Assembly (NCBI GenBank): GCA_012842395.1
Contig: DUSX01000034.1
Span: 388,650 to 452,649, forward strand
Direction of reading: 5' to 3'
DNA length: 64,000 nt
Origin: Bacillota bacterium
GTDB taxonomy: Bacteria > Bacillota > SHA-98 > UBA4971
The notes beneath the pieces were generated by a model. It was given only the letters and a program-made list of their open reading frames with translations, did no database searches and was not told the DNA's origin. Numbering within the stretch: position 1 is the first letter of the stretch; each line of letters opens with the position of its first letter. Shown piece by piece: positions 3,416-54,110 of the stretch. Made by a program: the position numbers and the translations under genes.

Positions 3416-3546
3416 ACGGGCACGCCATCTGGATAGCCGGAAAACCCAGGGAGGTCCTGCGGGCCCTTGCCGCCCTTTCCAAGAGTCACGCCACCCTCGG
3501 CGACCTTCTGTCGCCTGCCACGAAGCGCTGAGACTATGTCAAAGGT

Positions 3547-5340: not shown

Positions 5341-5361
5341 CCCCGATCAGGAGGAATCAGC

Positions 5362-14502: not shown

Positions 14503-16302
14503 ATGGCGCAGGCTAAGAAGTTTCGGCTCTCCAACAGGGAACTCGAGGTCATATTGAACTCCACCCACGACGGGATGATCGCTGTGGACCGCCACGGTCT
14601 CATCACCATCTTCAACGCGGCCGCCGCCCGCATCACTGGGCTCGATCCGGATGAGATGATAGGACGGCGCGCGCAGGATGTGATCCCGAACACCAGGCTC
14701 CACGTGGTGCTGGAGACGGGCCAGGCCGAGTTGAACCAGCAACAGGTGTTAGGTGGGGTCAAGATCATCACCAACCGCGTGCCTGTAAGAGACGCCGAGG
14801 GCAGAGTGATCGGTGCGGTTGCGGTTTTCCGGGACATCAGCGAGGTCATCTCGCTCGCTGAGGAGATCACGAACCTGCGCCAGATCCAAGGCCTCCTGGA
14901 GGCCATAATCAATTCAACTCAGGACGCGATCTCGGTCGTGGACGAGAACGGCATGGGGCTCCTGATCAACCCCGCGTACACCCGTCTGACCGGACTCACC
15001 GAGGAGGACGTCATCGGCAAGCCGGCCACCACCGATATCGCGGAGGGTGAGAGCATGCACATGAAGGTGCTTCGCACGCGGCTTCCCGTGCGGGGCGCCC
15101 ACATGAAGGTCGGCCCGCGAAAGAAAGAGGTCATAGTCCATGCCGCGCCCATCATCGTTGATGACAAGCTCAAGGGGAGCGTGGCTGTGATTCACGATAC
15201 ATCCGAGATCCGGAGGCTCACCGAGGAGCTTGACAGGGCGAAAAGGCTCATCAGGCGGCTCGAGGCCAAGTACACCTTCGACGACATAGTCGGCGTAAGC
15301 CCGAAGATGGCACGGGCAATCGAACAAGCCAGGCGCGTGGCCGCGACGCCGGTCACCGTTCTCCTGAGAGGGGAGAGCGGAACCGGAAAGGAGCTCTTCG
15401 CACACGCCATCCACAACGCGAGCGACCGGGCACGAGGCCAGTTCATAAGGGTGAACTGCACGGCGATCGTAGATACGCTCCTCGAGTCGGAGCTCTTCGG
15501 CTACGAGGAAGGCGCTTTCACGGGCGCGAAGCGAGGCGGGAAGCGCGGCCTCTTCGAGGAGGCGAGCGGCGGGACCATCTTCCTGGACGAGGTGGGGGCC
15601 ACGAACCTCGCGCTGCAAGCCAAACTGCTGCGAGTCCTTCAGGAGAAGGAGATCGTGCGGGTCGGTGACACACGTCCCATACCCGTGGACGTCCGCGTGA
15701 TAGCCGCCACCAACACCGACCTCGAGAAGGCCGTCCGCGAGGGGCGGATGCGGGAGGATCTGTACTACCGGCTCAATGTGGTCCCCATTTTCATCCCACC
15801 CCTTCGGGAGCGCATCGAAGATATTCCTCTCCTGTGCCACAGCCTGATACGTCGGTTCAACCAGGCTTACGGGAGAAACGTGAGCCGCATCTCAGAGGAG
15901 GCCCTCGACATCCTCGCCGAGTACGATTGGCCGGGGAACGTGAGGGAGCTCGAGAACGTTCTTAGCCGCGCCATCATCAACATGCACTTCAGCGAGGTAG
16001 AGATCCTGCCGCGCCACCTGCCCGCCCTGGGCAGGTTCCAGCAGGGTCTTCAGGCGTGGCAAGCAGGCCAGGCAGTCCCGGGGAAGGGCTCCGAGGCCGA
16101 AGCAGAAGCCGAGGCGCTCGGGCGGGGCGGGCCATCCGCACAGGGCGTCCCAAGCCTTCGCGAGGCCGTCGAGCATGCCGAGAAACGGGCCATCCTTCGT
16201 GCCCTTCAGGCCTCAAAGGGCAGCAAGACCGCGGCCGCGAAGCTGCTCGGCATAGGCCTCCGCAGCCTCTACTACAAGATCAAGCGTTATCACATCTCGT
16301 GA
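14503..16302 (+). CDS. Sigma-54-dependent transcriptional activator with two PAS domains and a C-terminal Fis-type HTH
   Basis: Walker A GESGTGKE, GAFTGA motif (EEGAFTGAKRGG), ...WPGNVRELEN..., C-terminal TAAAKLLGIGLRSLYYKIKRY. N-terminal PAS repeats. Confidence 0.85.
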   Translation: MAQAKKFRLSNRELEVILNSTHDGMIAVDRHGLITIFNAAAARITGLDPDEMIGRRAQDVIPNTRLHVVLETGQAELNQQQVLGGVKIITNRVPVRDAEGRVIGAVAVFRDISEVISLAEEITNLRQIQGLLEAIINSTQDAISVVDENGMGLLINPAYTRLTGLTEEDVIGKPATTDIAEGESMHMKVLRTRLPVRGAHMKVGPRKKEVIVHAAPIIVDDKLKGSVAVIHDTSEIRRLTEELDRAKRLIRRLEAKYTFDDIVGVSPKMARAIEQARRVAATPVTVLLRGESGTGKELFAHAIHNASDRARGQFIRVNCTAIVDTLLESELFGYEEGAFTGAKRGGKRGLFEEASGGTIFLDEVGATNLALQAKLLRVLQEKEIVRVGDTRPIPVDVRVIAATNTDLEKAVREGRMREDLYYRLNVVPIFIPPLRERIEDIPLLCHSLIRRFNQAYGRNVSRISEEALDILAEYDWPGNVRELENVLSRAIINMHFSEVEILPRHLPALGRFQQGLQAWQAGQAVPGKGSEAEAEAEALGRGGPSAQGVPSLREAVEHAEKRAILRALQASKGSKTAAAKLLGIGLRSLYYKIKRYHIS

Positions 16303-33597: not shown

Positions 33598-33820
33598 TAG
33601 ATATACCGCTACAAGCTCGGGCTGCCTTTGAGCGCGCGAGCGCGAACCCTGCCTGGGGTCGCCGGTTTGCCCCTCCCCTCCGGGAATGGCGCGCTTGCGG
33701 CGTCCCTCGTTCGGATTTGACGTGCAGGTTAGCAGACTCTCTGCGCCCCATCCTGCAGGCATTGGCAATCCTAGCCTACTCAAGCAATGATACGAAAACC
33801 TGTAGCGCCATGCTCAGAAT
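33598..33820 (+). repeat. Copy F (diverged) of the intergenic repeat family
   Basis: ctagatataccgctacaagc…ccctccgggaatggcgcgcttgcggcg.cctcgttcggatttgacg…cgaaaacctgtagcgccatgctcag aligns with copies A and B. Its right arm overlaps the stop codon of the beta-barrel gene. Confidence 0.55.
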
Positions 33821-35094
33821 CTGTACACGAGGGTGATTCCGGATTCGAACCCGTGGAGGTTTTTCGCCGGTCTGAGAGGGTACTCCCGGCGCTTGATCTC
33901 GGCCTCGTAGGCCACGTCAAGATCGCGTGACAGGGAGTAGGAGAGTCTCCACGTGGCCGTTGCCTCGTGATAATCGCCATCTCTTTCCCCCGAGTCGGTG
34001 TAACCCCTTTGGACGAACGCGCATCCGGCCCGCAAGGAGAGGTTCTTGCTCAGGGAGGTCTCCGCTTCGGCTCCAACGCTGCGAGCCTTGTATTCGTTTT
34101 TCGGGGACGCAGGCGCCTTGCGCTCGAACAACGCCCCTTCAAGAGTAAGGGTGCCAAGCACCGTCTTCTTCAGGCCGAGAGACATGGAGAGCTCGCGGTC
34201 GTGGTGGTCCTTCGCTGCCGCGAACGGGAACCGCTTGTCTACGTCGGAAAGCGCCACGTCTACCGAAAGGCGCGCCACAGGGTCCCACGACAAGGCGACC
34301 TCTCGGGTCGTTTGGTCGTAGGTTCGCCCCGTGGACTCGGGGTACATCGCGCGTTTTCGCTCGATTCTGACCCGCCCCTCCAGAGCCTTGGCCCGTTCGC
34401 CCGCAAGCTCGAGCCAGCATGCCGTGGTGGCCGAGCTCTTCTTCGGTTCGACCCAGTAATCCCTGCTAACAACGTCGAAGCCCGCCAGAACCGACACCTG
34501 TGATACCGGGGCCATCTTCAACTCGCCTGCCACTTCCCGGCGTTCGTGGTCGCTCTCAGGTCGGGCTGGATACGCGGTTTGCTCTCGTTCCCACGCAAGG
34601 TTCGCGGACAATCCGGTGGCAAGAGGCTTCCACCCGAGCGCCGCCCTGACAATCGTCGAGATGCATTCCCTCCCCTGGCCGGCAGAGTCATCGGACTCGA
34701 CCGTTCTGCTCTTCCTGGCGTCAAGGTCCAGGCTGAGCCCTCCCCCCATCTTGGCTGCAAGGGCCGCGGCCGCGTAGCCCAGCGCGCCGCGCCCGTCTGG
34801 AGCAGGCCGTGCGCCAAACGCGACATCGCACGACATCCCGCCGACGGACGGCAGGCGGAGCTTGCCGTCGAACGCCATGTCCAGCTTCATCCCATGGTTC
34901 GCGGGATCCTCGTGGAAAGAGAGGACCTCCAGCGTGAACTTGCCGCTTAGTCGCGCCGCCCCCAGTATCCACCAGCCGCCGGGATTTTCGTCGCCCGCCG
35001 CCGTCGCCTCTCCCGGAAAACAAGTCAACCACACCGCGAGTGCACACGCGACCACGCAGCCCAGCCTGATAACGCCCGCCTTGTTACTACCCAT
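33814..35094 (-). CDS. Putative outer-membrane beta-barrel protein (signal peptide; C-terminal ...TLVYRF)
   Basis: ATG at 35094 gives MGSNKAGVIRLGCVVACALAVWLTCFPGEATAAG (a signal peptide). Alternating hydrophobic strands. Terminal aromatic motif I-T-L-V-Y-R-F. Track ORF is over-extended to 35286. Confidence 0.4.
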   Translation of the reverse strand: MGSNKAGVIRLGCVVACALAVWLTCFPGEATAAGDENPGGWWILGAARLSGKFTLEVLSFHEDPANHGMKLDMAFDGKLRLPSVGGMSCDVAFGARPAPDGRGALGYAAAALAAKMGGGLSLDLDARKSRTVESDDSAGQGRECISTIVRAALGWKPLATGLSANLAWEREQTAYPARPESDHERREVAGELKMAPVSQVSVLAGFDVVSRDYWVEPKKSSATTACWLELAGERAKALEGRVRIERKRAMYPESTGRTYDQTTREVALSWDPVARLSVDVALSDVDKRFPFAAAKDHHDRELSMSLGLKKTVLGTLTLEGALFERKAPASPKNEYKARSVGAEAETSLSKNLSLRAGCAFVQRGYTDSGERDGDYHEATATWRLSYSLSRDLDVAYEAEIKRREYPLRPAKNLHGFESGITLVYRF

Positions 35095-35344
35095 GCCCGC
35101 CGTTGCCTCCCCGATAGTGCTGAGGGTCGAAGCGCGCAGCCTGCGTCGGCCCCTACTGACCGATGGCCTCCGCTGACTCATGGACAGGTGTCTCCATAAT
35201 ACCATGACCTGCCATGGATGCCAATCCCACTTTCGGGTGATTCTCCCTTGCACTGGCAACGGCTTCTCGCCGCCAAGTAAATGCAAAGACCCCCCGACGC
35301 AGCAGACATGCGCGCATCGGGAGGCCTTTTAAGCGCCGACTTGA

Positions 35345-35705
35345 CTCGTCTCTATCTAAGTATGTCGCCAAAAGTGCGCGCTACTCTCCGGCGGAGGGGA
35401 TCCTGTCTAAGGCTATCGGCTTTGCCCTCCGGGGACCGCGCGCTTGCAGCGCGCCTCGTTCGAATTCGGCGCGCAAGCCTGCCGAATTCTCCACGCCCCG
35501 TCGTGCAAGCACCGGCAACCCTAACGCCGTCAAGAAAGGAGACGAAAACTTACGGCGCCATACTTAGAGCAGATCGCCACAAGCTCGCCATACTTACATC
35601 GCAACGCTAAGGTCCTGTCCGCGATTGCCGCTGCCGTCCTCAGGGGGACGGCGCGCTCGCGGCGCGCCGCCTCGTCAGGATTCGGGGCCTTGAGGCGCAC
35701 TTGCG
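35345..35705 (+). repeat. Copies A (full) and A2 (partial), forward tandem pair of the intergenic repeat family
   Basis: A: ctaagtatgtcgccaaaagtgcgcgctactctccggcgg…ccctccggggaccgcgcgcttgcagcgcgcctcgttcgaattcggcgcgcaagcctgccgaattctccacgccccgtcgtgcaagcaccggcaaccctaacgccgtcaagaaaggagacgaaaacttacggcgccatacttag. A2 repeats the core (…cagggggacggcgcgctcgcggcgcgccgcctcgtcaggattcgg…ttgcgccatactcc). Confidence 0.7.
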
Positions 35706-35806
35706 CCATACTCCATGCTCCCAAGCCGTGCAAGCACTCGCAACAATCCAGGCGTCCCGGGAACGGGAGGCGAGGATTCCCGGCTCCGCAAAACCCAGAG
35801 CCTCAC

Positions 35807-36031
35807 CTATTTGCGCTTCTTCACAAGGCCCAGCGCCACAGCTTTTGCATAGTCCTTGCAGTGCTCGCAGTCCTTCCAGCAATCCAAGCACCCCTCGTCG
35901 GAATCCCAGCAGTTGTCGTGCCTGGCATAAACAGGGCAGATGAGGTAAAGGCTCGCAGGACACCCTCTCAACTGCCTGCAGCTTCTCAGGCTGGCAACGG
36001 ACACTCCTTCCGGGAGCTCGACCTCGGCCAC
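35807..36031 (-). CDS. Small cysteine-rich protein (74 aa, 9 Cys), function unknown
   Basis: GTG start preceded by AAAGGGTGA. Motifs CX5C…CX8C…CLDCWKDCEHC. Basic C-terminus KKRK. Its own sigma-A-like promoter lies upstream. Confidence 0.4.
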   Translation of the reverse strand: MAEVELPEGVSVASLRSCRQLRGCPASLYLICPVYARHDNCWDSDEGCLDCWKDCEHCKDYAKAVALGLVKKRK

Positions 36032-36082
36032 GCGTTATCACCCTTTCATGTCAGTTGGCCCAGATGTTTCCCCCGGTGGGAG

Positions 36083-36111
36083 TGTATCACAGGGCACCGC
36101 ACGCGTCAACT
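36083..36111 (-). promoter_or_regulatory. Sigma-A-type promoter for the Cys-rich ORF (TTGACG-N17-TACACT)
   Basis: Minus strand reads TTGACGCGTGCGGTGCCCTGTGATACACT, about 45 nt upstream of the GTG start. Confidence 0.35.
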
Positions 36112-36184
36112 TGGCCGCCGCCCAGCCCCACCGCCTTCGGCCGCGTGCTGCTGGCTTCCTGGCCTCATTCGCCGGTGTGCCCTC

Positions 36185-36385
36185 TACACGAGATGAGCTC
36201 TCGTTTCGTTGCATGGCGGTGTGCGGCTGCCGACGCTTGCATCACGGGTCTAGAGGATTTGCCCAGCTCGTGCGCGGAATTCGGGCGAAGCTCGCCCCGA
36301 GTGCGCCGTCCCCGGAGTGCAACGCCAGCACCCCCGCCACGACCACCGCTCCACAATGCAGCGCCGACTTCCGGCGATATGCTTA
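36185..36385 (-). repeat. Copy G of the intergenic repeat family (reverse orientation, inverted relative to copy A)
   Basis: …gcggaattcgggcgaagctcgccccgagtgcgccgtccccggagtgcaacgcc…gatatgcttagaac parallels reverse-orientation copy C (…gcgcgccgtccccggagggcaa…). Abuts the stop codon of the downstream P-loop gene. Confidence 0.5.
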
Positions 36386-37714
36386 GAACAGCCTGCCCGT
36401 GAACCTTTCCACGATTATCTCTTCCAGGGTCGGATGCCCGATCTCCTCGAGCTCATACCGCACCCGGAGCGCTGGCTTGGTTATGTTTATCACGCGGCGT
36501 AGATCGATAGGCGTGCCGATGACAACTACGTCCGCGGGTGTCCTGTTGATCGTCTCCTCCAATTCCCTTATTTGCTCCCTCCCGTAGCCCATGGCCGGCA
36601 GCAATGGTTCCAGCTCGGGGTATTTCCTCAAGGTGGCCTTGATGGAGCCAACGGCGTAAGGCTCCGGATCCACAAGCTCCGCTGCTCCATGGCGCCTAGC
36701 CGCTATCACGCCCGCACCGTAGGTCATGCCGCCGTGGGTAAGGGTAGGACCATCCTCGACCACGAGCACTCTCTTTCCGCGTATCATGTCGCCCTGTTCG
36801 AGCACGACCGGGGATGCCGCGCGGATGACCACAGCCCCCGGATTGATCTTCCTCACCGCGGCCTCGACCCGGTCCACATCGTCGGGTTTCGCGGTGTCGA
36901 CTTTGTTCAGGATGACCACGTCAGCCATGCGGAGATTGGTCTCGCCTGGGTGAAACGATGTCTCGTGCCCGGGCCTGTGCGGGTCGGCAAGGGTGATCAG
37001 GAGGTCCGGCTCATAGAATGGCATATCGTTGTTGCCGCCGTCCCAGAGCACAACCTCTGCCTCTTTCTCCGCCTCCCGCAGAATCGCGCCGTAATCGACG
37101 CCGGCGTAGACCACGAACCCCCTCGCGATGTGCGGCTCGTACTCTTCGCGCTCCTCGATCGTGGTGTCGTATCTGTCGAGGTCCTCAAACGTTGCAAACC
37201 TCTGCACCCTCTGCTTTATCAGGTCGCCGTACGGCATGGGATGCCGGACCACAACGGTCCTTTTCCCGTGTCTCTTCATGATCTCCGTCACCCTGCGCGT
37301 CGTCTGGCTCTTGCCAACACCCGTCCTCACAGCCGTTACCGCAATGACGGGCACCTGCGACCTCAGCATCGTGGTGGTGGGGCCCATAAGCCTGAAGTCG
37401 GGCCCCTTCGCAAGCGCGACCGACGCCTTGTGCATCACGTCCAGGTGAGAAACGTCACTGTACGCGAACACAACCTCGTCCACGCCGTGCTTCTCTATGA
37501 TGGCCGGGAGCTCTTCCTCGGAGAGGATCGGGATCCCGTCCGGGTAACCGTCGCCCGCGAGCTCGGGCGGATATCGTCTCCCCTCGATGTTCGGGATCTG
37601 TGTCGCGGTGAACGCCACCACCTCGTACTCTTGGTTGCCGCGGAAGAATGTGTTGAAATTGTGGAAGTCACGCCCAGCGGCGCCCATGATCACTACCTTG
37701 GTCTTGTTGGCCAC
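36383..37714 (-). CDS. P-loop NTPase of the cyclic 2,3-diphosphoglycerate synthetase-like family; candidate accessory/chaperone of the ornithine aminomutase operon
   Basis: …KVVIMGAAGRDFHNFNTFFRG… Walker A VTAVRTGVGKSQTT. Last gene of the ord-ort-ora operon. Start uncertain: GTG at 37714 (GAGG, then 6 nt), or ATG at 37768 as in the track. Confidence 0.55.
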   Translation of the reverse strand: MANKTKVVIMGAAGRDFHNFNTFFRGNQEYEVVAFTATQIPNIEGRRYPPELAGDGYPDGIPILSEEELPAIIEKHGVDEVVFAYSDVSHLDVMHKASVALAKGPDFRLMGPTTTMLRSQVPVIAVTAVRTGVGKSQTTRRVTEIMKRHGKRTVVVRHPMPYGDLIKQRVQRFATFEDLDRYDTTIEEREEYEPHIARGFVVYAGVDYGAILREAEKEAEVVLWDGGNNDMPFYEPDLLITLADPHRPGHETSFHPGETNLRMADVVILNKVDTAKPDDVDRVEAAVRKINPGAVVIRAASPVVLEQGDMIRGKRVLVVEDGPTLTHGGMTYGAGVIAARRHGAAELVDPEPYAVGSIKATLRKYPELEPLLPAMGYGREQIRELEETINRTPADVVVIGTPIDLRRVINITKPALRVRYELEEIGHPTLEEIIVERFTGRLF

Positions 37715-39134
37715 TTGAGACCTCACTCCCGTCTTTTCTTGAATGATACGGGCTCTCGCGAACGCCATGACAGCCCGCGAGCCCCAAGCTCCGAAGCATT
37801 ATCGCTACGGCGGCGTCTGGATGGAATCTCGCAAGCACGCCGCATGATGCCATCACGTAGTCCCTGTCTATCACGCACCTCGCGTCAGGCGGCGGAAGGA
37901 GCCGGGTGTCACCCCGTCGCCCTTTCGCGCCCTCCAATATGAACCCGCCGCCCGGCAGCCTCGCCACCGCCCCGCCGGTCCCGATGATCCACTTGACCTT
38001 CGTCAGGTCCTTTCCCTCGGCCACCGTCACCCTGCCGAGCGGGCCGTACAGGTGCCGGACTTGGCCCGCATGGCGCCGAACTGCTATCTGCGCGGCCTCC
38101 GCGGCGAGCGCACGTGCAAACCGAAGCCCCTTTTCCGTCGAAGGCACCGGCTCGAGCTCCTGCAGCGCCTCGACGGGATCAAAGCCAAGATCCTGTGCAA
38201 GCTTATCGGGACCCACGAGGTCGACAATGTTCGACGCGTTGATGAAAACGCCCAGATCGCCCTCAACCGTGCGCTTGGCAACAGGCTCTGGGCTCGTCAG
38301 GATCTTCGCGACCTCTTCCGATCCTTCGGTCACCGAGTGCACGTCAGTGGTCGCTCCTCCCACATCGATGACCACCAGGTCCCCAATCGCCTCATACAGC
38401 AGCTTGGCTGCAGCCATCACCGCACCGGGCGTCGGCATGATCCCGCTGCTCACCACCTCGCGCACGCGGGCCATTCCGGGAGCGGTCACGATGTGCTCCT
38501 CGAACACCCTCTGGATCGCCCGCCTTGCAGGCTCGATGTTCAGGACGTCTACCCGAGGGTACACGTTCTCGACGATCGTGACTGCCGTCCCGGCCCCGTC
38601 GAAAATGGCCTTTACCTCGCCCTGGATAGCTCTGTTGCCCGCGTATATCACGGGCGCGCCCATGCGCGCCGCAGCGATGAGCCGGGCGTTGCGAAGAACC
38701 GTGTCCCTGTCGCCGAAATCCACACCCCCGGCGAGCAGGATGATGTTCGGCCGAACCTCGCGGAGCCTGGCCAGGTCGGTGTCAGACAGCGGTCCCGCGG
38801 TCACCATCCTCAGGATCGCGCCGGCCCCGAGCGCGGCTTCCTTTGCGGCCTTGACCGTCATGTCGTATACGAGCCCGTGGACGGTCATCCTGAGGCCACC
38901 CGCCGCGCTCGACGTGGCGAGGAGCAACTTGTACCCTACTTTCTCCGCGCCGAGACAGCGAGCGAGATCTTCCATGGCCCTTTCCAGGCCCAGCCAGACG
39001 TCGCCTTGCCGAACGCTCGTGAGCGCCCGGCCTTGCCCCAGGAACACCGGATTCGGCCCGCCAAGCCCGTCGAAGGCGTTCACCAGAGTCGTAGTGCTCC
39101 CGATCTCTGCAATCAATGCGTCTACGTTTAACAT
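37668..39134 (-). CDS. GlmL/MutL-family protein (glutamate mutase L-like, actin-fold ATPase); putative B12-enzyme reactivase component
   Basis: MLNVDALIAEIGSTTTLVNAF… is the xIDIGSTxT signature of GlmL. Its ATG overlaps the oraE stop (ATGTTAA). The Arg-rich first 79 aa of the track ORF are spurious. Confidence 0.7.
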   Translation of the reverse strand: MLNVDALIAEIGSTTTLVNAFDGLGGPNPVFLGQGRALTSVRQGDVWLGLERAMEDLARCLGAEKVGYKLLLATSSAAGGLRMTVHGLVYDMTVKAAKEAALGAGAILRMVTAGPLSDTDLARLREVRPNIILLAGGVDFGDRDTVLRNARLIAAARMGAPVIYAGNRAIQGEVKAIFDGAGTAVTIVENVYPRVDVLNIEPARRAIQRVFEEHIVTAPGMARVREVVSSGIMPTPGAVMAAAKLLYEAIGDLVVIDVGGATTDVHSVTEGSEEVAKILTSPEPVAKRTVEGDLGVFINASNIVDLVGPDKLAQDLGFDPVEALQELEPVPSTEKGLRFARALAAEAAQIAVRRHAGQVRHLYGPLGRVTVAEGKDLTKVKWIIGTGGAVARLPGGGFILEGAKGRRGDTRLLPPPDARCVIDRDYVMASCGVLARFHPDAAVAIMLRSLGLAGCHGVRESPYHSRKDGSEVSSGQQDQGSDHGRRWA

Positions 39135-41419
39135 GCCGGGGCCCCCGAATCCGTGCCCTCGCTCGAGCCTCCGCCTGGGCCTGGGTCGTTTCTGCCCTCT
39201 GAGTGCGCCTCCTTTTCTTGGAGCGTCCGCACGAGGAAGGTGGCTACGTCTATGCCGCGGGTCCCGCGCCCGAACCCGGCGTCCATTCCTGATTCGGTTG
39301 CGATGTCCCGCGTGACCTGGGTGCCGCCGGCGACCAAAAGCACCCTGTCGCGGATACCCTTTTCGACACACAGGCTAGCGAGCTTCTTCATGTTCATCCT
39401 GTGGACATCGGCATGGGTGATTATCATGCTTGCGAGGATCGCGTCGGCACCGACCTCGATCGCCGCGTTCACGAGTTTTTCAACAGGGCAGGACGTTCCC
39501 AGGTAATGGCACTCGATCCCGAAGCCCTCAAGCCCGCCGTGCTTTATGTCTAGTATCTCCCGGAGCCCGACAGAGTGCTCGTCCTGGCCCACCGTGGCCG
39601 CGACGACCTTGACGCCTCCTCTCCGCCTCACGAACTCCCTGATTTCGTCAGGCGAAAGAGGCTTTTGTGACTCTGGCGTCTTGAGGCTCGCGAGGTCTAT
39701 CCCGAACGTCACCCTGCCCTTCACTTCCACCAGGGTGCCCTCCGCTGGATGCATGACCTCCTTGTGGATGACCTTGGGCTCCTCCAGTCCGAGCCTGCGC
39801 GCGGTCTCGAGCGCCGCCGCCTCTGCGCGGGCCTCGTCGATCGGCCAGAACATGGTCATGGTCACGACCCGGTCCGCAGCCCACTCGACCTCAGGATAAA
39901 CCAGGCCCGGCGGCCCGGCCTCCAGCGTCGCGAGCCTCGTATCGACGTTGTCCGTGGGGTCAAGTTCATCGACGTATACTATCTTGTCGGGGTTGCACAG
40001 AGTGCATCCCCCGATGAGATCGCATGGCCGGTCCGCCCTCGTTCCCTCGGGGAGATGGTTGTCACCGAAGTGAGCGCACACCGGTGCCATATAGTCTGCG
40101 TCGCGCGGCACTATGGTCCCTGCCGCCACGCCCCCCTCGGGGTCTCGCGCTATCCCGTCGCCGTTGCGCTCCGGATACATTCCGGAGTCGACGAAGAAGC
40201 CTTGCCGCACAGCCTCGAAGTACCCGCCGACGTCCAAGATCTCCTCGAGGAACAATACCGCCCGCTCGGTGATCTCGCGCGCTTTCCGCTCCAGCTCGCC
40301 GTTGGGGTCGTCGTCAAGCTTCACCATGTCTCGCAGCCCGTCAAGCCCGATGAGCACCTGTTTGGCGGTGGCCAGGGCAGCGATGTTGTTGTAGTGCCAG
40401 GGGACGTTCCGTCCCTCGTCAGGCGTGATGGTGCTCTGGATGTCGGCGCTTGTGAGCCTCGATAACACGAGGTTAAGAGCGTGGGTGACGGTCGCCTCGC
40501 GCGTGGACGATTCTATGTACTTCGTGTTCATTTGGGCCCGGAACCTGTACCCTGCGAAGAGCCTGCGAAGGGCCACAGCATACGGCAGATCCAGGCGCAT
40601 CTCTGGCGCAGGCGGGGCCGCAGGAGGGACGGTGGACAGGCATATGTTCTCCTTCGCCATCCCAACTTTCACTGAATAGGCGCAGTTGATGGCATGCTGC
40701 ACCATCAGCTCAGGCGTGACCTTCCACGCCTCACGGGCAGTGGCGTTCGCATTGTGCGCTCCGTCGATCTGCGCCATGCCGGCCCATTGCATCAAGGTCT
40801 TGGCCACCGCCGCGTCGACGAATGACCGGTACATGTTGACGTTCCTGTACAGCACGTTGTACTGCGGGTCCTGGTGTGCGCCGTTCACGCCCTCCTCGGC
40901 GAAAAGCACGGCGATCTCTGGGCCCGCCACACCACTCACATACGAGTGGAAGTTTATCGGCCGGCCTACTTCGTCCTCGATGAGATCCAGTGCCTTGCGC
41001 GTCGCACGCACCTGTTTTCGCGTGATAGGGACACCGCCCACCCCTTCCGGAGTGCCTTCGATGAGCCCGTCGAAATGGCTTTGACCGATGGTGCGGATGA
41101 CCATTATGTGATCCGCCCCGTGCCAGGCCGCCATCCTCATCCGCCTTATGTCATCCTCGAACCGGCCCGACGCGATCTCCGTGGTCACGACCACCTCTGG
41201 CTGGGGGTCTATGCCACCGAAGTACTTCGCCGCAGGAAGCGCCACAGATCGATCCAGTGGGCGCGATATCTGGCGGTACTCGAATGGTCCGACCTTTGTG
41301 CCGGGCGGTAGCTTCTCACGCCAGACCCAGCCTCGCCGCCTGGGTCTGTAATGCTCGAGATCGCGGAGGATCTCCCGCACGTCCAGCTTCTCGTCGGGCC
41401 GCAGCGTCGCTCCAGCCAC
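39128..41419 (-). CDS. oraE: D-ornithine 4,5-aminomutase E subunit (PLP barrel plus C-terminal B12-binding domain)
   Basis: 763 aa. …ALPAAKYFGGIDPQPEVVVTTEIASGRFEDDIRRMRMAAWHGADHIMVIRTIGQSHFDGLIEGTPEGVGGVPITRKQVRA… C-terminal Rossmann domain with the DxHxxG cobalamin motif (GQDEHSVGL). Confidence 0.85.
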   Translation of the reverse strand: MAGATLRPDEKLDVREILRDLEHYRPRRRGWVWREKLPPGTKVGPFEYRQISRPLDRSVALPAAKYFGGIDPQPEVVVTTEIASGRFEDDIRRMRMAAWHGADHIMVIRTIGQSHFDGLIEGTPEGVGGVPITRKQVRATRKALDLIEDEVGRPINFHSYVSGVAGPEIAVLFAEEGVNGAHQDPQYNVLYRNVNMYRSFVDAAVAKTLMQWAGMAQIDGAHNANATAREAWKVTPELMVQHAINCAYSVKVGMAKENICLSTVPPAAPPAPEMRLDLPYAVALRRLFAGYRFRAQMNTKYIESSTREATVTHALNLVLSRLTSADIQSTITPDEGRNVPWHYNNIAALATAKQVLIGLDGLRDMVKLDDDPNGELERKAREITERAVLFLEEILDVGGYFEAVRQGFFVDSGMYPERNGDGIARDPEGGVAAGTIVPRDADYMAPVCAHFGDNHLPEGTRADRPCDLIGGCTLCNPDKIVYVDELDPTDNVDTRLATLEAGPPGLVYPEVEWAADRVVTMTMFWPIDEARAEAAALETARRLGLEEPKVIHKEVMHPAEGTLVEVKGRVTFGIDLASLKTPESQKPLSPDEIREFVRRRGGVKVVAATVGQDEHSVGLREILDIKHGGLEGFGIECHYLGTSCPVEKLVNAAIEVGADAILASMIITHADVHRMNMKKLASLCVEKGIRDRVLLVAGGTQVTRDIATESGMDAGFGRGTRGIDVATFLVRTLQEKEAHSEGRNDPGPGGGSSEGTDSGAPAC

Positions 41420-41425
41420 GTCGCC

Positions 41426-41791
41426 TCACCTCCCGGCACCGAAGAGGCTCACAGCCTCGTCCCACATCCTGCCCTCGGCCAGGGCGACGCCGGCCTCGCG
41501 CACACTCATCCCTCGGGCGGTCGCGAGCTTCCACACCACGTGGCCCGCGCCCTTGCCGAGAAGGCCTCTCTCGACGCACCTATCCACGATGGCTTTCGCC
41601 TCCAGGCTGGAAAACCCCATCCGGAGGAGAACCGACCTTTCAATCGAGGGTGAAGTGTGGGTGCGCGCAAGCTCCACCAAAGGCTGCACCACTTTGTCCG
41701 CCAGCTCCCAAAAGTACCTCGCGAGCTCTTCATCGCTCATGCCGGCGAGATGCCGACGCCTCTCCTCGAAATCATCAGGCCGAACCATCAC
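41426..41791 (-). CDS. oraS: D-ornithine 4,5-aminomutase S subunit
   Basis: 121 aa (MMVRPDDFEERRRHLAGMSDEELARYFWELADKVVQPLVELAR…). Sits immediately upstream of oraE with ATGA-type coupling to ortB. Size and position match OraS. Confidence 0.8.
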   Translation of the reverse strand: MMVRPDDFEERRRHLAGMSDEELARYFWELADKVVQPLVELARTHTSPSIERSVLLRMGFSSLEAKAIVDRCVERGLLGKGAGHVVWKLATARGMSVREAGVALAEGRMWDEAVSLFGAGR

Positions 41792-43218
41792 TCTGGGACC
41801 TCCCCTCCCCTTTGCAGCTCGCGGATGGTTTCCTCGACGAAGCCCACGGTCGAATTGGTATCATCAGCGAGGAACCTCACGTCCTCCGCGGATATCTGCC
41901 GACCTTTTGCGCAAGACAAGGCATTCCGTATGTAGGACCTGCGCATGTCGGCGAGGGATACGTCCTTGACGTGGATCTGCGACGGGTGAAGAGGTATGAC
42001 TATCCGTTTTCCGGGGACGTTCTCGCGGGGATCCCCGCGTCTAATCTCGATCCCCATCTCGCGCGCGAACGAAAGCTGCGCATAAGGGTGCTTCCCTGCT
42101 CCCGTGTACTCGGTCTCCTGCACGACCACCACCTGGTCGCGATCCATCTCCCGCGCTACGGCGATGGCAGCGGCGAGCGACGTGTTCCCCGCGGGACCTC
42201 GCTCCATCCCCTCGAGCTTCGCCAGCATCTCGGTGACGTAAAAGACCTCGCCCTGGGTCACGGTGACGTACCTGTCCATGTAGCGCAGGGGCCTCGCGGC
42301 GTTTCGAGGAACATCCGCCCTATCCGGCCACGTCGCAAATGGAATCCCGAAGCCCGTGTGCCCGGTCGTAAAGGATTTCCTGTTGAAATCGGTGTCGCTG
42401 GCCATGTGAAGCCCGAGAAGGTCGACGCTCGCAGCGATGACCTGAGTGTGCCGGCACCCCGCCTTGCGGAGACCCCGCGCCGTTCCGGTAACATTCCCGC
42501 CGCCCGCGTGGGTCACGATGACCGCATCCGGGAAGCGCCCTGTCATCCGCAGCGTCTCCGTGCCCACCTCGTACCCGAGGGTCTCGATGCCCGCGACGCT
42601 AAACGGCGTATAGAGGGAAGCGTTGAAGAAACCTGTCTCCTCGAGGAGCCTCAGGAAGACGTAGAAGAGCTCGGGCCCCACTGTGAGCTGGTGGACTTCG
42701 GCCCCGTACGCTTCGCACGCCCGTCCCTTCTCAATGATCTCGGGCTGGCCGCGCCCCTTCGAATCGTAGGTTTCTTGCACAATGATGCACTTGAGGCCAT
42801 GCTTAGCGGCCTGCGACGCCACGGCTGCCCCGTAATTGCCGCTGGTTGCGGCTATGACCCCTGGATACCCCTTCTTCTTGGCACAGTACACGGATACCGA
42901 CGCGCGCCTGTCCTTAAAGCTCCCCGACGGATTCGCAGATTCGTCTTTCACCAGGATCCGGGCGCCCTTGCCAGGAGCGGATATCCGCCGCACCACCTCG
43001 GTGATGTTGCGGAGCTCGACCAGGGGCGTTCGCCCGACGCTCGTTTCTTCCTGGATGGCGTGGACTTCGTCGAGCGTGTACCCGACCTCGTCCATCATCC
43101 CCTCGTAATCAAAGGCGATCGCGCCGAGCTCGAACTTCTCGTAGTCGATGCCCACCGCCGATCTCATGATGTCTTGGCGCCTCGCCATGACATCCGCGTA
43201 ACTCGTGCCGGGCATCAC
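41788..43218 (-). CDS. ortB: 2-amino-4-ketopentanoate thiolase beta subunit (PLP-dependent)
   Basis: 476 aa fold-type II PLP enzyme (…KDESANPSGSFKDRRASVSV…GVIAATSGNYGAAVASQAAKHGLKCIIV…). Context is ord-ortA-ortB-oraSE. Confidence 0.8.
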   Translation of the reverse strand: MMPGTSYADVMARRQDIMRSAVGIDYEKFELGAIAFDYEGMMDEVGYTLDEVHAIQEETSVGRTPLVELRNITEVVRRISAPGKGARILVKDESANPSGSFKDRRASVSVYCAKKKGYPGVIAATSGNYGAAVASQAAKHGLKCIIVQETYDSKGRGQPEIIEKGRACEAYGAEVHQLTVGPELFYVFLRLLEETGFFNASLYTPFSVAGIETLGYEVGTETLRMTGRFPDAVIVTHAGGGNVTGTARGLRKAGCRHTQVIAASVDLLGLHMASDTDFNRKSFTTGHTGFGIPFATWPDRADVPRNAARPLRYMDRYVTVTQGEVFYVTEMLAKLEGMERGPAGNTSLAAAIAVAREMDRDQVVVVQETEYTGAGKHPYAQLSFAREMGIEIRRGDPRENVPGKRIVIPLHPSQIHVKDVSLADMRRSYIRNALSCAKGRQISAEDVRFLADDTNSTVGFVEETIRELQRGGEVPE

Positions 43219-43580
43219 GGTTCACCACCCTCTTTGTTCCTCCCGGCCTCCCGTGCGCCGAGAAGCCCCCATAGTTCCTCGCCAATGTGGAGGAGCTCGG
43301 GCACGGGCCTAGCAAAGGAATGGGGGTACGGAGGATTCACCGCGACCAGCCGTCCCCTGACCTTTCTCCCAAGCACCGTGGTGATCGTCACCTCATCTCC
43401 AACGAGCGCGTCGTGGTCCAGATACCCCTTGATTCGCAGCTCCAAAGGAACCTTCTGGGTGTCCTCGGGGACTTGCGGGGCCCGCTCGCCAGGTTTCAGA
43501 ATGATCGAGTGCACCTGCACGTACTCCCCGGACCGCACGCGCTTGCTGTTTTCTGACTCCGGAACGTTCACGTCACACAT
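43215..43580 (-). CDS. ortA: 2-amino-4-ketopentanoate thiolase alpha subunit
   Basis: ~120 aa (…GEYVQVHSIILKPGERAPQVPEDTQKVPLELRIKGYL…) between ord and ortB, with overlapping stop/start codons. Start may be internal. Confidence 0.65.
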   Translation of the reverse strand: MCDVNVPESENSKRVRSGEYVQVHSIILKPGERAPQVPEDTQKVPLELRIKGYLDHDALVGDEVTITTVLGRKVRGRLVAVNPPYPHSFARPVPELLHIGEELWGLLGAREAGRNKEGGEP

Positions 43581-44634
43581 GCTCCCTGCGTCCTCCCTCC
43601 CCCCGGGCGAGCTTCGCTATGTCTCCCATGAAGCACGCGGGCACACGCAGGTCTTTCATGGTGACAAGGCCGGGCTCCGCATTCAACACATGCGGGATCA
43701 TGTTCACCGCGATGGCGATCGTGCCGGTGCCGCCCGGGATCTCCGGCTTTATCGCTAGGTTCACGGGCGGGGTGCCTTCGATCCAGATGTAGTCCCCGGT
43801 CTCCACGCCCTCCAGACCCGGCAGAACCTGTTGCGGATGTTCGAGGGTGATCACTTCCTCCCCGTTCATGAAGGCATGAGCCGTGTGGTTGCAGCCCGCA
43901 ACCATCCCCGGCTTCACGTCGACGTAAGGCGTCTTGCGCCTCGTGGCCGAGACGATGGGCTCGCGGGTCTGCCGGATCTCGTCAAGCTTCCACCCGAGCG
44001 CATCCGCGATCATACCGCATGACTGGACAAACCCGATGTGTCCGACTATGGTGCCTTTAGCAAGCCCATCTCTGAACTCCTCGACGGTGGTGCCCACGCC
44101 CTGGGTTCGCATGACCGTCGGCCCGAAAGGAGAGAGGTCGTTGACGCGCCTGGCCTTCACTCTTCTGACCCCGGTGCAGATGCCGGTGAGAGCGATTATG
44201 AGAGTATCGAGGACAAACCCTGGATTGATGCCCGTGCCGAGCACGCTCACCCCGTACTTGCGCGCAAGCTGGTCGATCTCTGCAGCAAGCTTCGGGTCGG
44301 TTTGCCAGAGATACGCCATCTCCTCCGCCACCGTGATGACATCCGACCCCGCGGCCATGGCCGCGTCCAGCTGGTGATAGATCTCTTTCGCAAACGACGA
44401 GGTGGCGTGAAGCACCACGTCCGCGCCCGCCTCGAGGGCTTCCTCCGGATTGCTCGTGACCCTCACGCCAAGCTCGCGTCCAACCCCGAGTACCTCCCCC
44501 AGATCGCGCCCTGCTTTCTCTGGCCTCGAGGCTACGGCCCCAACGATCCTGACTCCTTTACGCTCTAGCAGGGCTCTCGCCATGCCGGAGCCCATCGCAC
44601 CGAGCCCCCAACACACCACCGTGACATCGTCCAC
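43573..44634 (-). CDS. ord: 2,4-diaminopentanoate dehydrogenase (DapB-like N-terminal Rossmann fold)
   Basis: GTG at 44634 (AAGGGGGAG, then 8 nt) gives MDDVTVVCWGLGAMGSGMARALLERKGVRIVGAV… First gene of the operon. Track ORF extends to 44679. Confidence 0.75.
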   Translation of the reverse strand: MDDVTVVCWGLGAMGSGMARALLERKGVRIVGAVASRPEKAGRDLGEVLGVGRELGVRVTSNPEEALEAGADVVLHATSSFAKEIYHQLDAAMAAGSDVITVAEEMAYLWQTDPKLAAEIDQLARKYGVSVLGTGINPGFVLDTLIIALTGICTGVRRVKARRVNDLSPFGPTVMRTQGVGTTVEEFRDGLAKGTIVGHIGFVQSCGMIADALGWKLDEIRQTREPIVSATRRKTPYVDVKPGMVAGCNHTAHAFMNGEEVITLEHPQQVLPGLEGVETGDYIWIEGTPPVNLAIKPEIPGGTGTIAIAVNMIPHVLNAEPGLVTMKDLRVPACFMGDIAKLARGEGGRREHV

Positions 44635-44814
44635 TGCGATCACTCCCCCTTGCATAGTTCCTGGTGAGCTGCGCAGCACCGAACCGGCAGCCGCAGCCTA
44701 CTCGCTGCATACTCTGTCAACTGGCCGCACCGAACCGCGAGCGGCGCGCCTCGTGCCACCGTTGCCTCACGCATGCTTGGATGACCAGCCCGCTCGGCCG
44801 CATCTATGCAGCTA

Positions 44815-44828
44815 TGCATAATTATGCA
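44815..44828. promoter_or_regulatory. Perfect 14-bp palindrome TGCATAATTATGCA (TGCA-N6-TGCA) upstream of the ornithine operon, inside a TGCA-rich tract
   Basis: Seen directly. Same TGCA-N6-TGCA architecture as the two sites upstream of the buk2 sigma-54 promoter. A possible -24/-12 element TGGCAC-N5-GCGCC lies on the minus strand at 44743-44758. Confidence 0.35.
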
Positions 44829-45064
44829 CCCACTGCATACGCGCGGCCGAAAAATGTGCCGCCTCCCCCACTCAGATGTTCGGCAGCTTCCCGCACTTAG
44901 GTTCCCTAGTTTTCCCTATGGTATTCTACTCGATGCTCCGGATTCCTGCCCCACCAAACGTGAGAGGGAAGCGGGAAGCCGTGGGCGGGCGGAACTCGCG
45001 GGGGCGCAGGTGGCAGTGCAACCGTGCGAGGTGCGGGCAGGCCGTTCCGGAGCAAATCGAGGGA

Positions 45065-45110
45065 TCGAAAGCGAAACGGGCCGCCGAAACGGGCCGCCCA
45101 TGAACGGGCG
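45065..45110 (-). terminator. Intrinsic-terminator-like hairpin downstream of lon
   Basis: Minus strand reads GGGCCGCCCGTTCATGGGCGGCCC, a 9-bp perfect stem, followed by GTTTCGGCGGCCCGTTTCGCTTTCG. It sits immediately after the lon stop. Includes tandem GAAACGGGCCGCC units. Confidence 0.45.
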
Positions 45111-45175
45111 GCCCATCCTCAGGAACACGTGACACAGCTAGCTTCGGGAAATCGGGGGTATCTCCACGTCCTCAC

Positions 45176-47641
45176 TTAGCAGGACTCGTAGTAGAGCTGG
45201 TCCGGGACCGGTGCGGGCGGACCGTCCTGAACAATCGCTGGCAGCACCCGCTCTTCTTCGTCCTCCGCGTTCCGCTGCCCCTCGCACAGCTCGTCCCGGC
45301 GCTGAAGCGCGACGTCGAGCACTTCGTCCATGTGCTCCACGAATACCAGCTTCATGTCGTCGAGGACGCTCTTCGGGATCTCCTCGGTGTCCTTGCGGTT
45401 CTCGCTGGGAAGCACCACCGTGAAAACCCCCGCCCGGTGCGCCGCTACGACTTTCTCCTTCACGCCGCCCACAGGCAGGACCCTTCCCCGCAAGGTGATC
45501 TCGCCGGTCATGGCGATGTCGCACCTCACCGGCCTGCCAGAAAGGGCGGACGCGAGGGCGGTCGCCATCGCGATCCCGGCGGAGGGCCCGTCCTTCGGTA
45601 TAGCGCCCTCAGGCACGTGGATGTGCACATCCCGGTCCTGATAGAAATTGGGGTCTATCCCGAGATCATCCGCGCGGGACCTGATGTACGTGAAGCCGGC
45701 CTGCGCGGACTCCTTCATCACCTCGCCCAGCTTGCCCGTGAGCGTGAGCTTCCCGGTACCTTTCATAACCGAGACCTCGATGGCCAGGATATCCCCGCCC
45801 ACCTCTGTAACAGCGAGACCGGTCGCAACGCCCACCCTGTCCTCGGACTCGGCGACGCCGTACCTGTACTGCGGTATGCCGAGGTACCCTTCAACGTCGG
45901 CTGGCCCCACAACTATGCGAGCGCCCTCGGCGTCAGACGGCGCGCTCACCACCTTCTTCGCGATCTTCCTCAATATCGAGGAGATCTCCCTCTCGAGCCC
46001 GCGCACCCCCGCCTCCCGGGTGTACTGCCTGATGATCGTCCTTATGGCGTCCTCGGTGAACTCGATGTTGTATCGCTCGAGCCCGTTCTCCTTCAACTGC
46101 TTCGGCACGAGGAAATGCAGGCCGATCTGCACCTTCTCTTCCTCGGTGTAGCCTGGTATGGAAATGATCTCCATGCGGTCCGCAAGCGGCTTGGGGATGG
46201 CATGGAGCACGTTCGCCGTCGTTATGAACATGACGTCGGACAGGTCGAACGGGATCTCGATGTAGTGATCGCCGAACGCGAAGTTCTGCTCAGGATCAAG
46301 GACCTCGAGAAGCGCCGACGAAGGGTCTCCCCGGAAGTCGTAGCTCATCTTGTCTACCTCGTCGAGGAGGATCACCGGGTTCTTCGAGCCAGCTTGACGC
46401 ATGGCCTGGATGATCTTGCCAGGGAGCGCACCTACGTATGTGCGACGGTGCCCGCGGATCTCGGCCTCATCCTTTATGCCGCCCAGCGAGAACCTGACGA
46501 ATTTCCTGTCAAGCGCCCGAGCTATGGACTTGCCAAGGGAGGTCTTGCCCACGCCAGGCGGCCCGACGAGGCAGAGGATCGGGCCCTTGAGCTTGCTTGT
46601 AAGTTGGCGGACGGCCAGGAACTCAAGGATGCGCTCCTTGACCTTCTCCAAGCCGTAATGATCCTCGTCAAGGACCTTGGCCGCGGCCTCGATATCCAAG
46701 CGGTCCTGGGTTTTGCGTGTCCATGGGAGAGCCAAGAGCCAGTCAAGATAGGTTCGCACCACGACAGCCTCCGCAGCCATGGGAGGCATCTTCTCGAGCC
46801 TCTCCACCTCACGGAGCGCCCGTTCCTCGACTTCCTTGGGCAGGTCCGCGGCAGCGATCTTCTCGCGGTATTCCTCGCCCTCCTGGGACTTGTCGTCCCG
46901 TTCGCCGAGCTCCTTCTGTATGGCCTTCATCTGCTCGCGGAGGTAATACTCCTTCTGGGTCCTCTCCATTTGCTTTCGCACGCGCGAGTTGATCTTCTTC
47001 TCAAGCTCGAGGATTTCCATTTCCTTGAGCAAGATGGCGCACAGTCTCTCCAGCCTAAGCCTGGGAGACGCAGCCTCGAGCACCTTCTGTTTGTCCTCCG
47101 TTCGCAGAGGCAGATGGGCCGCTATGTCGTCAGCGAGTCTCCCTGGGTCTTCTATTGTTTGGACGGATGCCAGCACTTCGGTGGGTATCTTCTTGCCGAC
47201 TCTGACGTAGGACTCGAAGTACCCAAGAACGCTGCGCATGAGGGCTTCGGTCTCCTTGGTCATGCGCTCGGAAACCTCGAGGGGCTCGATTCTCACCTTG
47301 TAGAACGGATCGACCTGCGTGTACTCGGCGATCCTCGCGCGTTGCACGCCTTCGACCAGCACCCTGATGGTGCCGTCCGGGTACCTGGCGAGCTGTTTGA
47401 CCTCAGAAATCGTGCCGACCTCGTAGATCTCCTTCGGCGTTGGCTCGTTCACCTTGGCCTGCTTCTGAGCCGCAAGAAGGATGAGCCTGTCATTCATCAT
47501 CGCGTCTTCGAGCGCGGCCACAGACCTATCTCTGCCCACGTCGAGCGGAACGGTCATGAACGGAAACACGATCACGCCACGCAATGGGAGAAGAGGTACC
47601 AAGTCCCTCGTTCTTGCTGCTTTGGTTTCGTCCTTTGGCAT
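45176..47641 (-). CDS. lon: ATP-dependent Lon protease (LonA)
   Basis: …[36 protein letters not shown]… (Lon N-domain). AAA+ …[18 protein letters not shown]… Protease …[23 protein letters not shown]…. Confidence 0.9.
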
Positions 47642-53166: not shown

Positions 53167-53874
53167 GAAGCCACGGGACCTTGCCGCCCCGGGCGATCGG
53201 CAGCCTCCCTCCTCTTCGATTGTCCTTCGTCCGCCTTCCGCCGCGGTTCAGCGCAACGCACAAAAACAATACCTCGGTAGGCGCCGATCCAGCGACCGCC
53301 GAGGCAGTGTCGTGCGACTCCTTCGGCCGTTGGTATTCTAACACGCGTGCAGGACGTTGTAAAGGCAGCCCTAGCCGACCTACCTTGCCCTGACGGGGAT
53401 CTCGTGTGCTCCTACCCGGTAGGCGGCTGGTTCGGAACTCCTAAGGCTTTCGTCCAAGTCGTCTATGCCAGCCTGCGGCTGACCCCATCGAAAGGATGTA
53501 GATGGCAGCCATCGATCGTTTTCAAGGTAGTCGCCCATGGTGGCCAGGTGCCGCCGCCACGGAGGGATTGAAAACGACAACTGAGTGCTACTTTCAAGAC
53601 AGTCGTCCGTGACGGCGGGCTGCCGCCGCCATCAAGAAGATGAGGCTAGCGACCGCCGCCCGTTTTCGGGGTAGAAAGCTGTTCCCTGTAGAAGGATATG
53701 TGACGGAGGCAGCGAAATACTTTTACGAGAATCAATATAGCCTATGTTGCATATAGCATCGAGTCATTCGAATATACAGACAACAACTTTGCGTCCTGCA
53801 ATGGGACGTGCGTGGACGCTATGATCACGGCCCTATAAGCGGTCGCTTCGGGCCGCGGGAGCGAATAGCGAGAC

Positions 53875-53914
53875 CGGCCACGCACCTGTTTAGGTGTGTG
53901 GCCGGTTATTTCGC
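53875..53914 (+). terminator. Rho-independent terminator on the plus strand in the tig/helicase intergenic region
   Basis: CCGGCCACGCACC-TGTTTA-GGTGTGTGGCCGG followed by TTATTTCG. No annotated plus-strand gene ends here. Confidence 0.45.
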
Positions 53915-54110
53915 CCCTGCAGGTCCGCGGGCACACCAATGGGATCGGGGTGAAATGGGATGGAACTCGCTCGAAGAGCAAGGCGCTGGTGGCACCGGCA
54001 GCTCATAATCAACCCGGGTCGCGTTGATTCCTGGCTCGTGAGCCTCCTCAGCATCCTCGCAACGGCTGGCATCGTAGCGGTGATCGTGCGCTTCATGGGG
54101 TAGCCGCTTG

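Follow-up and report, generated by a model that had tools for sequence, protein, structure and literature searches.

An ornithine degradation operon directly upstream of a probable arginine synthetase gene, arcE, in a Bacillota bacterium

Organization of the locus and the ornithine pathway genes

A 64,000-nucleotide stretch of DNA from a bacterium of an uncultured Bacillota lineage (GenBank assembly GCA_012842395.1, contig DUSX01000034.1, positions 388,650 to 452,649; GC content 63%), referred to here as the window, carries seven co-directional minus-strand open reading frames (ORFs), ord, ortA, ortB, oraS, oraE, or-4 and arcE, which together occupy positions 36383–44634. To judge by sequence, the first six are the genes of the oxidative ornithine degradation cluster and the seventh is an orthologue of arcE, the gene for arginine synthetase, whose product would probably supply this pathway with ornithine made from arginine. 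An earlier, sequence-only reading of the window had delimited the same seven-gene block, and inspection of the ORFs bore it out at these coordinates. Upstream of the operon lies a housekeeping run, tig-(clpP)-clpX-lonB-lon, and downstream of arcE there follow a small cysteine-rich ORF, a 490-residue ORF, a gene for a CWB2/LysM protein, fusA and nusA.

Families were assigned with NCBIfam equivalog models and their cut-offs (release 20), together with Pfam. The 2,4-diaminopentanoate dehydrogenase gene ord (43573–44634, minus strand, like all genes of the block) matches NF040740 with 523 bits (cut-off 400) and Pfam DAP_DH_C with 342 bits; its longest ORF begins at 44679, and the probable start is the GTG at 44634, situated 3′ of GGGGGAG. 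It is followed by ortA (43215–43580), encoding the small subunit of 2-amino-4-oxopentanoate thiolase (NF040739, 126 bits, cut-off 70; Pfam OrtA), and by ortB (41788–43218), encoding the pyridoxal phosphate (PLP)-dependent subunit of the same enzyme (NF040741, 846 bits, cut-off 550). The two subunits of D-ornithine 4,5-aminomutase are encoded by oraS (small subunit, 41426–41791; Pfam OAM_alpha, 187 bits) and oraE (large, adenosylcobalamin (AdoCbl)- and PLP-dependent subunit, 39128–41419; NF040743, 1337 bits, cut-off 800). OraE contains the Pfam domains Lys-AminoMut_A, OAM_dimer and B12-binding, and its translation shows the B12 motif DxHxxG as DEHSVG. Models for lysine 5,6-aminomutase (KamDE) stay far under their cut-offs on OraE (NF052385, 150 versus 280 bits; NF052384, 143 versus 600 bits) and a separate OraS is present; the enzyme is therefore the ornithine aminomutase OraSE, as had been proposed. 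OraE ends in a low-complexity tail rich in Gly, Ser and Pro, which extends about 27 residues beyond the point where the family model stops (39128–39210), and a relative, locus L081, has a longer OraE of 782 residues.

OraSE shifts the terminal amino group of D-ornithine with the help of AdoCbl and PLP, Ord oxidizes 2,4-diaminopentanoate to 2-amino-4-oxopentanoate, and OrtAB cleaves the latter with CoA to acetyl-CoA and alanine. With the NCBIfam equivalogs above their cut-offs and OraS recognized by Pfam, the five core genes stand as the oxidative (Stickland-type) ornithine pathway, in agreement with the first reading. Also upheld was the lack of an ornithine racemase gene, orr: tblastn with the Orr sequences of two related loci, L039 and L074, found no homologue in the 64-kb window (best E value 0.5). 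Family-wide counts given here and below come from two samples, one of 80 arcE-family loci from species genomes of many phyla and one of 80 metagenomic oraE loci, of which the 35 with at least 5 kb of downstream sequence were used for counting. Since orr is missing from 8 of these 35 oraE clusters and present in the other 27, it appears to be frequent but not obligatory in cis.

The ord and ortA ORFs overlap by 8 nucleotides (nt), the ortA ATG lying within the ord stop region; ortA and ortB, as well as ortB and oraS, overlap by 4 nt, with GTGA at the stop of the upstream gene, and a 6-nt gap separates oraS from oraE. At the next junction, the sequence ATGTTAA had been taken for an overlap of two stop codons, those of oraE and of the GlmL-like gene, whereas it is the or-4 start that overlaps the oraE stop. 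All six genes from ord to or-4 are present and co-directional, their order is the commonest one among the 80 metagenomic oraE loci, and by homology they are the canonical oxidative ornithine degradation cluster, an ordinary catabolic operon that looks complete.

The sixth gene, or-4

The product of or-4 (37668–39134) is a GlmL/MutL-family 'GlmL-related ornithine degradation protein' (NF040744, 663 bits, cut-off 600), an ATPase of the actin fold (ASKHA) into which a flavodoxin-like domain is inserted. The GlmL/MutL-family identity suggested from the start is supported by the GlmL family model (TIGR01319, 296 bits), although the protein, with 404 bits, does not reach the 475 bits required by the true GlmL equivalog and passes the cut-off of the ornithine-specific one. 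The gene had been described as an extension of the operon; with an NCBIfam equivalog of its own and a presence in 33 of the 35 sampled oraE loci, Or-4 is rather a standard member of the cluster. One public record names an Or-4 homologue 'reactivating factor for adenosylcobalamine-dependent D-ornithine aminomutase', whereas our literature search found no experimental evidence for reactivation of OraSE by Or-4, and sequence searches detected no solved relative. Or-4 is presumably a reactivase or chaperone that maintains OraSE, a reasonable proposal that has already been published and is not new, and it constitutes an uncharacterized component of the ornithine pathway.

The Or-4 ORF comprises 488 residues, compared with 450–460 in most homologues, and extends 27–38 residues past the family model. 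An 11-nt indel relative to the 91%-identical relative L081, in which the stop lies 47 nt before arcE, deletes the usual or-4 stop; it is because of this overrun, caused by the indel, that or-4 and arcE overlap over such a length. The tail (residues 463–488) is predicted to be disordered. It is also carried by a 99%-identical database protein of 488 residues (P0252) and is thus not a one-off sequencing error. Two long GlmL-like proteins that were considered as possible fusions with a P-loop protein (P0265 and P0266) turned out to be partial internal duplications and were rejected.

The seventh gene as an arcE orthologue

The last gene of the block (36383–37717) probably starts at a conserved GTG at 37717, 3′ of GGGAGTGAGG, and its product, 444 residues long, contains the motifs TGVGKSQT (Walker A), WDGGNND and NKVD. 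The link to a characterized family was made by searching with an archaeal family member, which recovered proteins of Thermococcales, including one from Pyrococcus furiosus. The window protein and this P. furiosus protein (AAL80671.1) are 68% identical over 434 aligned residues with no gaps. The AAL80671.1 gene adjoins hypC and hypD, and Supplementary Table 1 of a 2026 paper lists PF0547 as arcE, PF0548 as hypC and PF0549 as hypD (PMC13260591). That paper comes from the same laboratory that demonstrated the biochemistry of arginine synthetase ArcE, an ATP-forming arginine deiminase, for TK2200 of Thermococcus kodakarensis (Michimori, Yokooji and Atomi 2024, PMC11032458). Homologues from Thermococcus and Palaeococcus belong to the family of the window protein, as do proteins from Bathyarchaeia, WOR-3, Anaerolineae, Thermoplasmata and others, with which it shares 63–70% identity.

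General family resources say little about this protein. Pfam reports a weak partial match to cobW (CobW/HypB/UreG G3E; 25.8 bits over 64 residues), and no model of the ArcE family is included in NCBIfam release 20. A phmmer comparison aligned 124 residues with the cyclic 2,3-diphosphoglycerate synthetase (cDPGS) 9sxb at E = 5e-4, so that the original placement of the P-loop protein in a 'cDPGS-like superfamily' was fair. Comparison of predicted folds gives a P-loop NTPase with LpxK and cDPGS as the closest solved relatives; structurally aligned with 8ork, the protein shows 16% identity. According to the published account, members of the family, formerly annotated as 'hypothetical' or 'putative GTPase', are structurally nearest to LpxK and only distantly similar to cDPGS, which served as the outgroup; their genes are often found near arcB and arcC, and the T. 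kodakarensis enzyme favours ADP, GDP supporting 8.4% relative activity (PMC11032458). Public records of ArcE-family proteins (P0001–P0251) bear the names 'cyclic 2,3-diphosphoglycerate synthase', 'GTPase' and 'CobW/HypB/UreG domain protein'.

arcE is a single-copy gene. Among the 80 arcE-family loci, the gene for ornithine carbamoyltransferase (OTC, arcB) lies directly 3′ of arcE in about 10 and that for carbamate kinase (CK, arcC) in about 7, one or the other being immediately downstream in about 17, while arginyl-tRNA synthetase (ArgRS) is encoded directly upstream in 15. Only 2 of the 80 have oraE or glmL within 10 kb, which leaves 78 with no B12 mutase gene nearby. Neighbours such as ArgRS, OTC and CK around the family form a pattern that fits arginine synthetase ArcE, and the seventh gene is, by homology, an orthologue of ArcE, that is, of a metabolic enzyme. 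The ArgRS-arcE pairs, which include loci L013 and L053, are on the same strand with a spacing of 20–50 nt; most are labelled Anaerolineae or Chloroflexota, and this linkage is not mentioned in the ArcE papers (PMC11032458; PMC13260591).

Linkage and synteny of arcE and the ornithine operon

Seen from the oraE side, arcE is present in 6 of the 35 sampled loci (about 17%), accompanied by OTC in all six and by CK in three. At least three gene orders occur, and the linkage is seen in both Bacillota and Actinomycetota; contiguous same-strand arrangements at these loci include orr-arcC-arcB-arcE and orr-arcE-arcB, and several unrelated lineages, with GC contents of 50–71%, have ornithine operons to which arcE and arcB, in some cases along with arcC, have been added. 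In a literature search, no paper was found that mentions both arcE and ornithine operons. One such locus, from a metagenome-assembled genome of Symbiobacterium (L039), contains an AMMECR1/LigB fusion gene and a radical-SAM gene (3491–5805) between orr and OTC, within a run oraE-or4-orr...OTC...arcE.

In the window, the or-4 and arcE ORFs overlap by 50 nt if arcE starts at the conserved GTG (37717), or by 101 nt with the ATG at 37768, so that arcE has both its Shine-Dalgarno sequence and its start within the tail of the or-4 ORF. Since, in addition, no terminator-like site beyond chance was detected between the two genes, their co-transcription is likely. Between lon and fusA, the seven genes are laid out in the same way in relatives whose ArcE is 85–91% identical, and in an 87%-identical relative, whose contig ends early, the or-4/arcE adjacency and the downstream synteny are kept. 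In three further lineages (ArcE 73–76% identical), the order reads tig-clpP-clpX-lonB-lon, arcE and then, further on, fusA-rimP-nusA, with no ornithine genes. The occurrence of arcE at the lon-fusA site of these sister lineages in the absence of OraSE argues that arcE is the resident gene and that the ornithine cassette, found upstream of it only in the clade of the window, is a later, clade-specific addition, as the gene orders indicate. A sister lineage might have its ornithine operon elsewhere, on an oraE contig (L116, FZPS01000141) that shares its assembly prefix with an arcE contig (L084); the GC contents of the two contigs, 60% and 49%, respectively, point to a mixed assembly, and nothing was concluded from this case.

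The intergenic region between lon and ord

Upstream of ord, a block of about 150 nt (44800–44950, minus strand) in the lon-ord intergenic region is conserved in the relatives L081 and L168, whereas the rest of that region is not. It contains a hairpin, GCTGCC-N18-GGCGGC (GGCAGC in L168), then a T-run, ACATTTTTCG, and after the hairpin nested palindromes of the form TATGCA..TGCATAATTATGCA..TGCATA; the predicted RNA fold of the block has a z score of −3.9. Among 171 loci, this pattern was found only in clade relatives, plus one probable chance match, the TATGCA-N-TGCATA of L036, which precedes an unrelated radical-SAM-like gene. No riboswitch or leader family of Rfam matched positions 35200–45300, even at E ≤ 1. 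Going by these three sequences, the block may be an attenuator or leader, or else an operator, of the ornithine operon.

Closer to lon, a GC-rich hairpin (45091–45114, minus strand; GGGCCGCCC-GTTCAT-GGGCGGCCC, then GTTTCGG), with equivalents in L081 and L168, looks like the lon terminator; it was missed by the T-run rule of our scan. The scan with consensus promoters and terminators gave counts no higher than those in shuffled sequences, and therefore we make no claim on a promoter or terminator of the operon. A possible sigma-54 promoter upstream of ord (GGCAC...TTTTTCG) does not have the GG-N10-GC spacing and was rejected by eye. The window also encodes a sigma-54-dependent enhancer-binding protein with PAS domains (14503–16302, plus strand), about 28 kb from the operon.

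Other features of the window

Just 3′ of arcE lies a cysteine-rich ORF of 74 residues (35810–36032, minus strand) with no Pfam match; ORFs of 74–98 residues are found at the equivalent position in L081, L082 and L168, and a promoter-like site (36109–36081) precedes it, made up of TTGACG and TACACT, 17 nt apart, with a TG in front of TACACT. The 490-residue ORF beyond it (33814–35286, minus strand) has no significant family match, only a faint one to a β-barrel porin (E = 0.001), and its counterpart in relatives is a gene of 425–428 residues at the same position. Further away, a c-di-GMP-II-GAG riboswitch aptamer was recognized at 53805–53888 on the plus strand (66 bits; gathering score 40). 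The single long plus-strand ORF that follows the aptamer (54108–55070) has no family match and overlaps a gene for a UvrD-like helicase/exonuclease on the opposite strand.

Discussion

The arrangement described here suggests that a canonical six-gene ornithine operon has been placed directly upstream of an arcE gene whose product feeds it with ornithine derived from arginine, a reading to which we assign a probability of about 0.78. We infer that ArcE would work in the catabolic direction and, together with ornithine carbamoyltransferase and carbamate kinase encoded elsewhere, would convert arginine to ornithine; the operon would then consume the ornithine arriving by this route, so that arginine would end up as acetyl-CoA, alanine, CO2 and ammonia, and additional ATP would be gained. 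A recurrent and independently arranged linkage of arcE and arcB with ornithine operons is seen in 17% of the sampled oraE loci, whereas arcE is present in one copy and has oraE close to it in only 2 of its 80 loci; this speaks for a connection at the level of metabolism.

Several observations weigh against this proposal. The 64-kb window contains no match to arcB, arcC, orr or ArgRS, and the completeness of the feeder route therefore cannot be demonstrated from the window. In the three sister lineages, arcE stands alone with about 60–200 nt of upstream sequence of its own; the adjacency may follow simply from where the cassette inserted, and arcE may have retained its own promoter. The link to TK2200 runs through a P. 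furiosus orthologue designated by the same laboratory, and the enzymes assayed in the ArcE papers are from Thermococcus only, with no bacterial member among them (PMC11032458; PMC13260591). Finally, the ArcE reaction is reversible, and a biosynthetic role has been suggested in some bacteria (PMC11032458).

Some of these points also count for the strongest alternative, which we nevertheless regard as unlikely: that the adjacency is incidental, arcE being an ancestral gene of the lon-fusA site that has its own role, for instance in making arginine from citrulline or in supplying carbamoyl phosphate, and having no functional coupling to the operon. The solitary lon-arcE arrangement of the sister lineages and the gene content of the window are as expected under it, and the authors of the ArcE work point to a possible use in biosynthesis by some bacteria (PMC11032458) and to a supply of carbamoyl phosphate in Thermococcus. 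On the other hand, arcE with arcB, with or without arcC, occurs in ornithine operons of unrelated lineages, in varied orders and over the wide range of GC contents given above, far more often than would a random gene; in the clade of the window, the spacing between or-4 and arcE has shrunk to 47 nt or given way to an overlap, with no terminator-like site; and the ArcE-ArcB route yields ornithine directly.

Far less probable is the proposal of the sequence-only reading that Or-4 and the P-loop protein form a dedicated nucleotide-dependent chaperone or reactivase pair for the AdoCbl aminomutase, in the manner of MeaB-type G-proteins and diol dehydratase reactivase. It could draw on the position of the P-loop gene directly after or-4, with overlapping ORFs, and on the partial G3E match and the NKVD motif of its product. 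Yet, along its full length, the P-loop protein shares 68% identity with an ArcE orthologue, within a family whose enzymatic reaction has been demonstrated and whose studied member prefers ADP over GDP (PMC11032458), while the MeaB model of Pfam gives E = 0.68. With cobW covering only 64 residues and only 2 of 80 loci near a mutase gene, we rejected a MeaB-type B12 chaperone GTPase of the G3E family as the identity of this protein. Co-occurrence with oraSE is infrequent, too: no oraE or glmL is near in 78 of the 80 arcE-family loci, 29 of the 35 oraE loci are without arcE, the sister lineages retain arcE at the same site with no ornithine genes, and arcE, where it is linked to ornithine operons, is always accompanied by OTC. 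It therefore appears that the P-loop gene is mechanistically unrelated to the aminomutase, an outcome that the sequence-only reading had itself named as refuting its proposal, and that its relation to the pathway is a metabolic one. The attractive idea that a B12 aminomutase has a new G-protein as its chaperone is thus replaced by a homology-based assignment to ArcE. Least probable of all is an identity as cyclic 2,3-diphosphoglycerate synthetase, the name that the NCBI pipeline gives to most family members and that the source records carry, given 16% identity to 8ork, a phmmer match to 9sxb confined to 124 residues, the merely distant similarity of the family to cDPGS, used as an outgroup (PMC11032458), and a gene neighbourhood of arginine metabolism, not glycolysis.

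We consider it an even bet that in uncultured anaerobes arcE, usually with arcB and sometimes with arcC, has repeatedly been welded onto ornithine operons, bringing a complete and previously undescribed fermentation of arginine into one transcription unit. If so, energy would be conserved at three substrate-level steps, those of ArcE, carbamate kinase and the conversion of acetyl-CoA to acetate, and in the clade of the window the link would go back to an insertion of the cassette directly before a resident arcE. The gene linkage suggests a concrete and testable role for ArcE in anaerobic bacteria, the feeding of Stickland-type ornithine oxidation. The names 'cyclic 2,3-diphosphoglycerate synthase' and 'GTPase' are outdated for this very widespread family, the identity of which remains at 63–70% between archaea and the bacterial phyla sampled. 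The new points made here, the re-annotation of arcE and its recurrent linkage with ornithine operons, are modest.

How the locus relates to known systems can be stated gene by gene. A conserved cluster for oxidative L-ornithine degradation, with ord, ortA, ortB, oraS, oraE, or-4 and orr, was reportedly described by Fonknechten and co-workers in J Bacteriol in 2009. That work is cited in PMC3091704, and the pathway of Clostridium sticklandii and Clostridioides difficile is summarized in PMC8803604. The window has the same six genes as the cluster of these species, at the level of equivalogs and in the order ord-ortA-ortB-oraS-oraE-or-4; the place after or-4, which orr holds in 27 of the 35 sampled loci, is taken by arcE instead. 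Or-4 resembles the GlmL/MutL proteins of glutamate mutase operons and the B12-enzyme reactivases DdrAB and EutA in its membership of the GlmL family and its actin-like ATPase fold, and like GlmL and those reactivases it always accompanies a B12 mutase; unlike true GlmL, it falls under the GlmL equivalog cut-off and over the ornithine-specific one. The P-loop protein shares with MeaB/MMAA, the G3E chaperones of methylmalonyl-CoA mutase, a P-loop core of the SIMIBI class, an NKxD motif and a gene position beside a B12 mutase. Its likeness to the ArcE of the Thermococcus ArcE-ArcB-ArcC pathway goes much further, comprising the same length, 68% identity without gaps to the orthologue from P. furiosus, the same invariant motifs, the same predicted fold neighbours LpxK and cDPGS, and a clustering with arcB and arcC that is common to the family in many genomes. 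The differences are that the window protein is a bacterial member known from its sequence, whereas the Thermococcus enzyme has been assayed; that its gene adjoins an ornithine-consuming operon, with arcB and arcC outside the window, unlike the Thermococcus type of linkage; and that ornithine serves proline synthesis in Thermococcus, whereas in the organism of the window it would be fermented.

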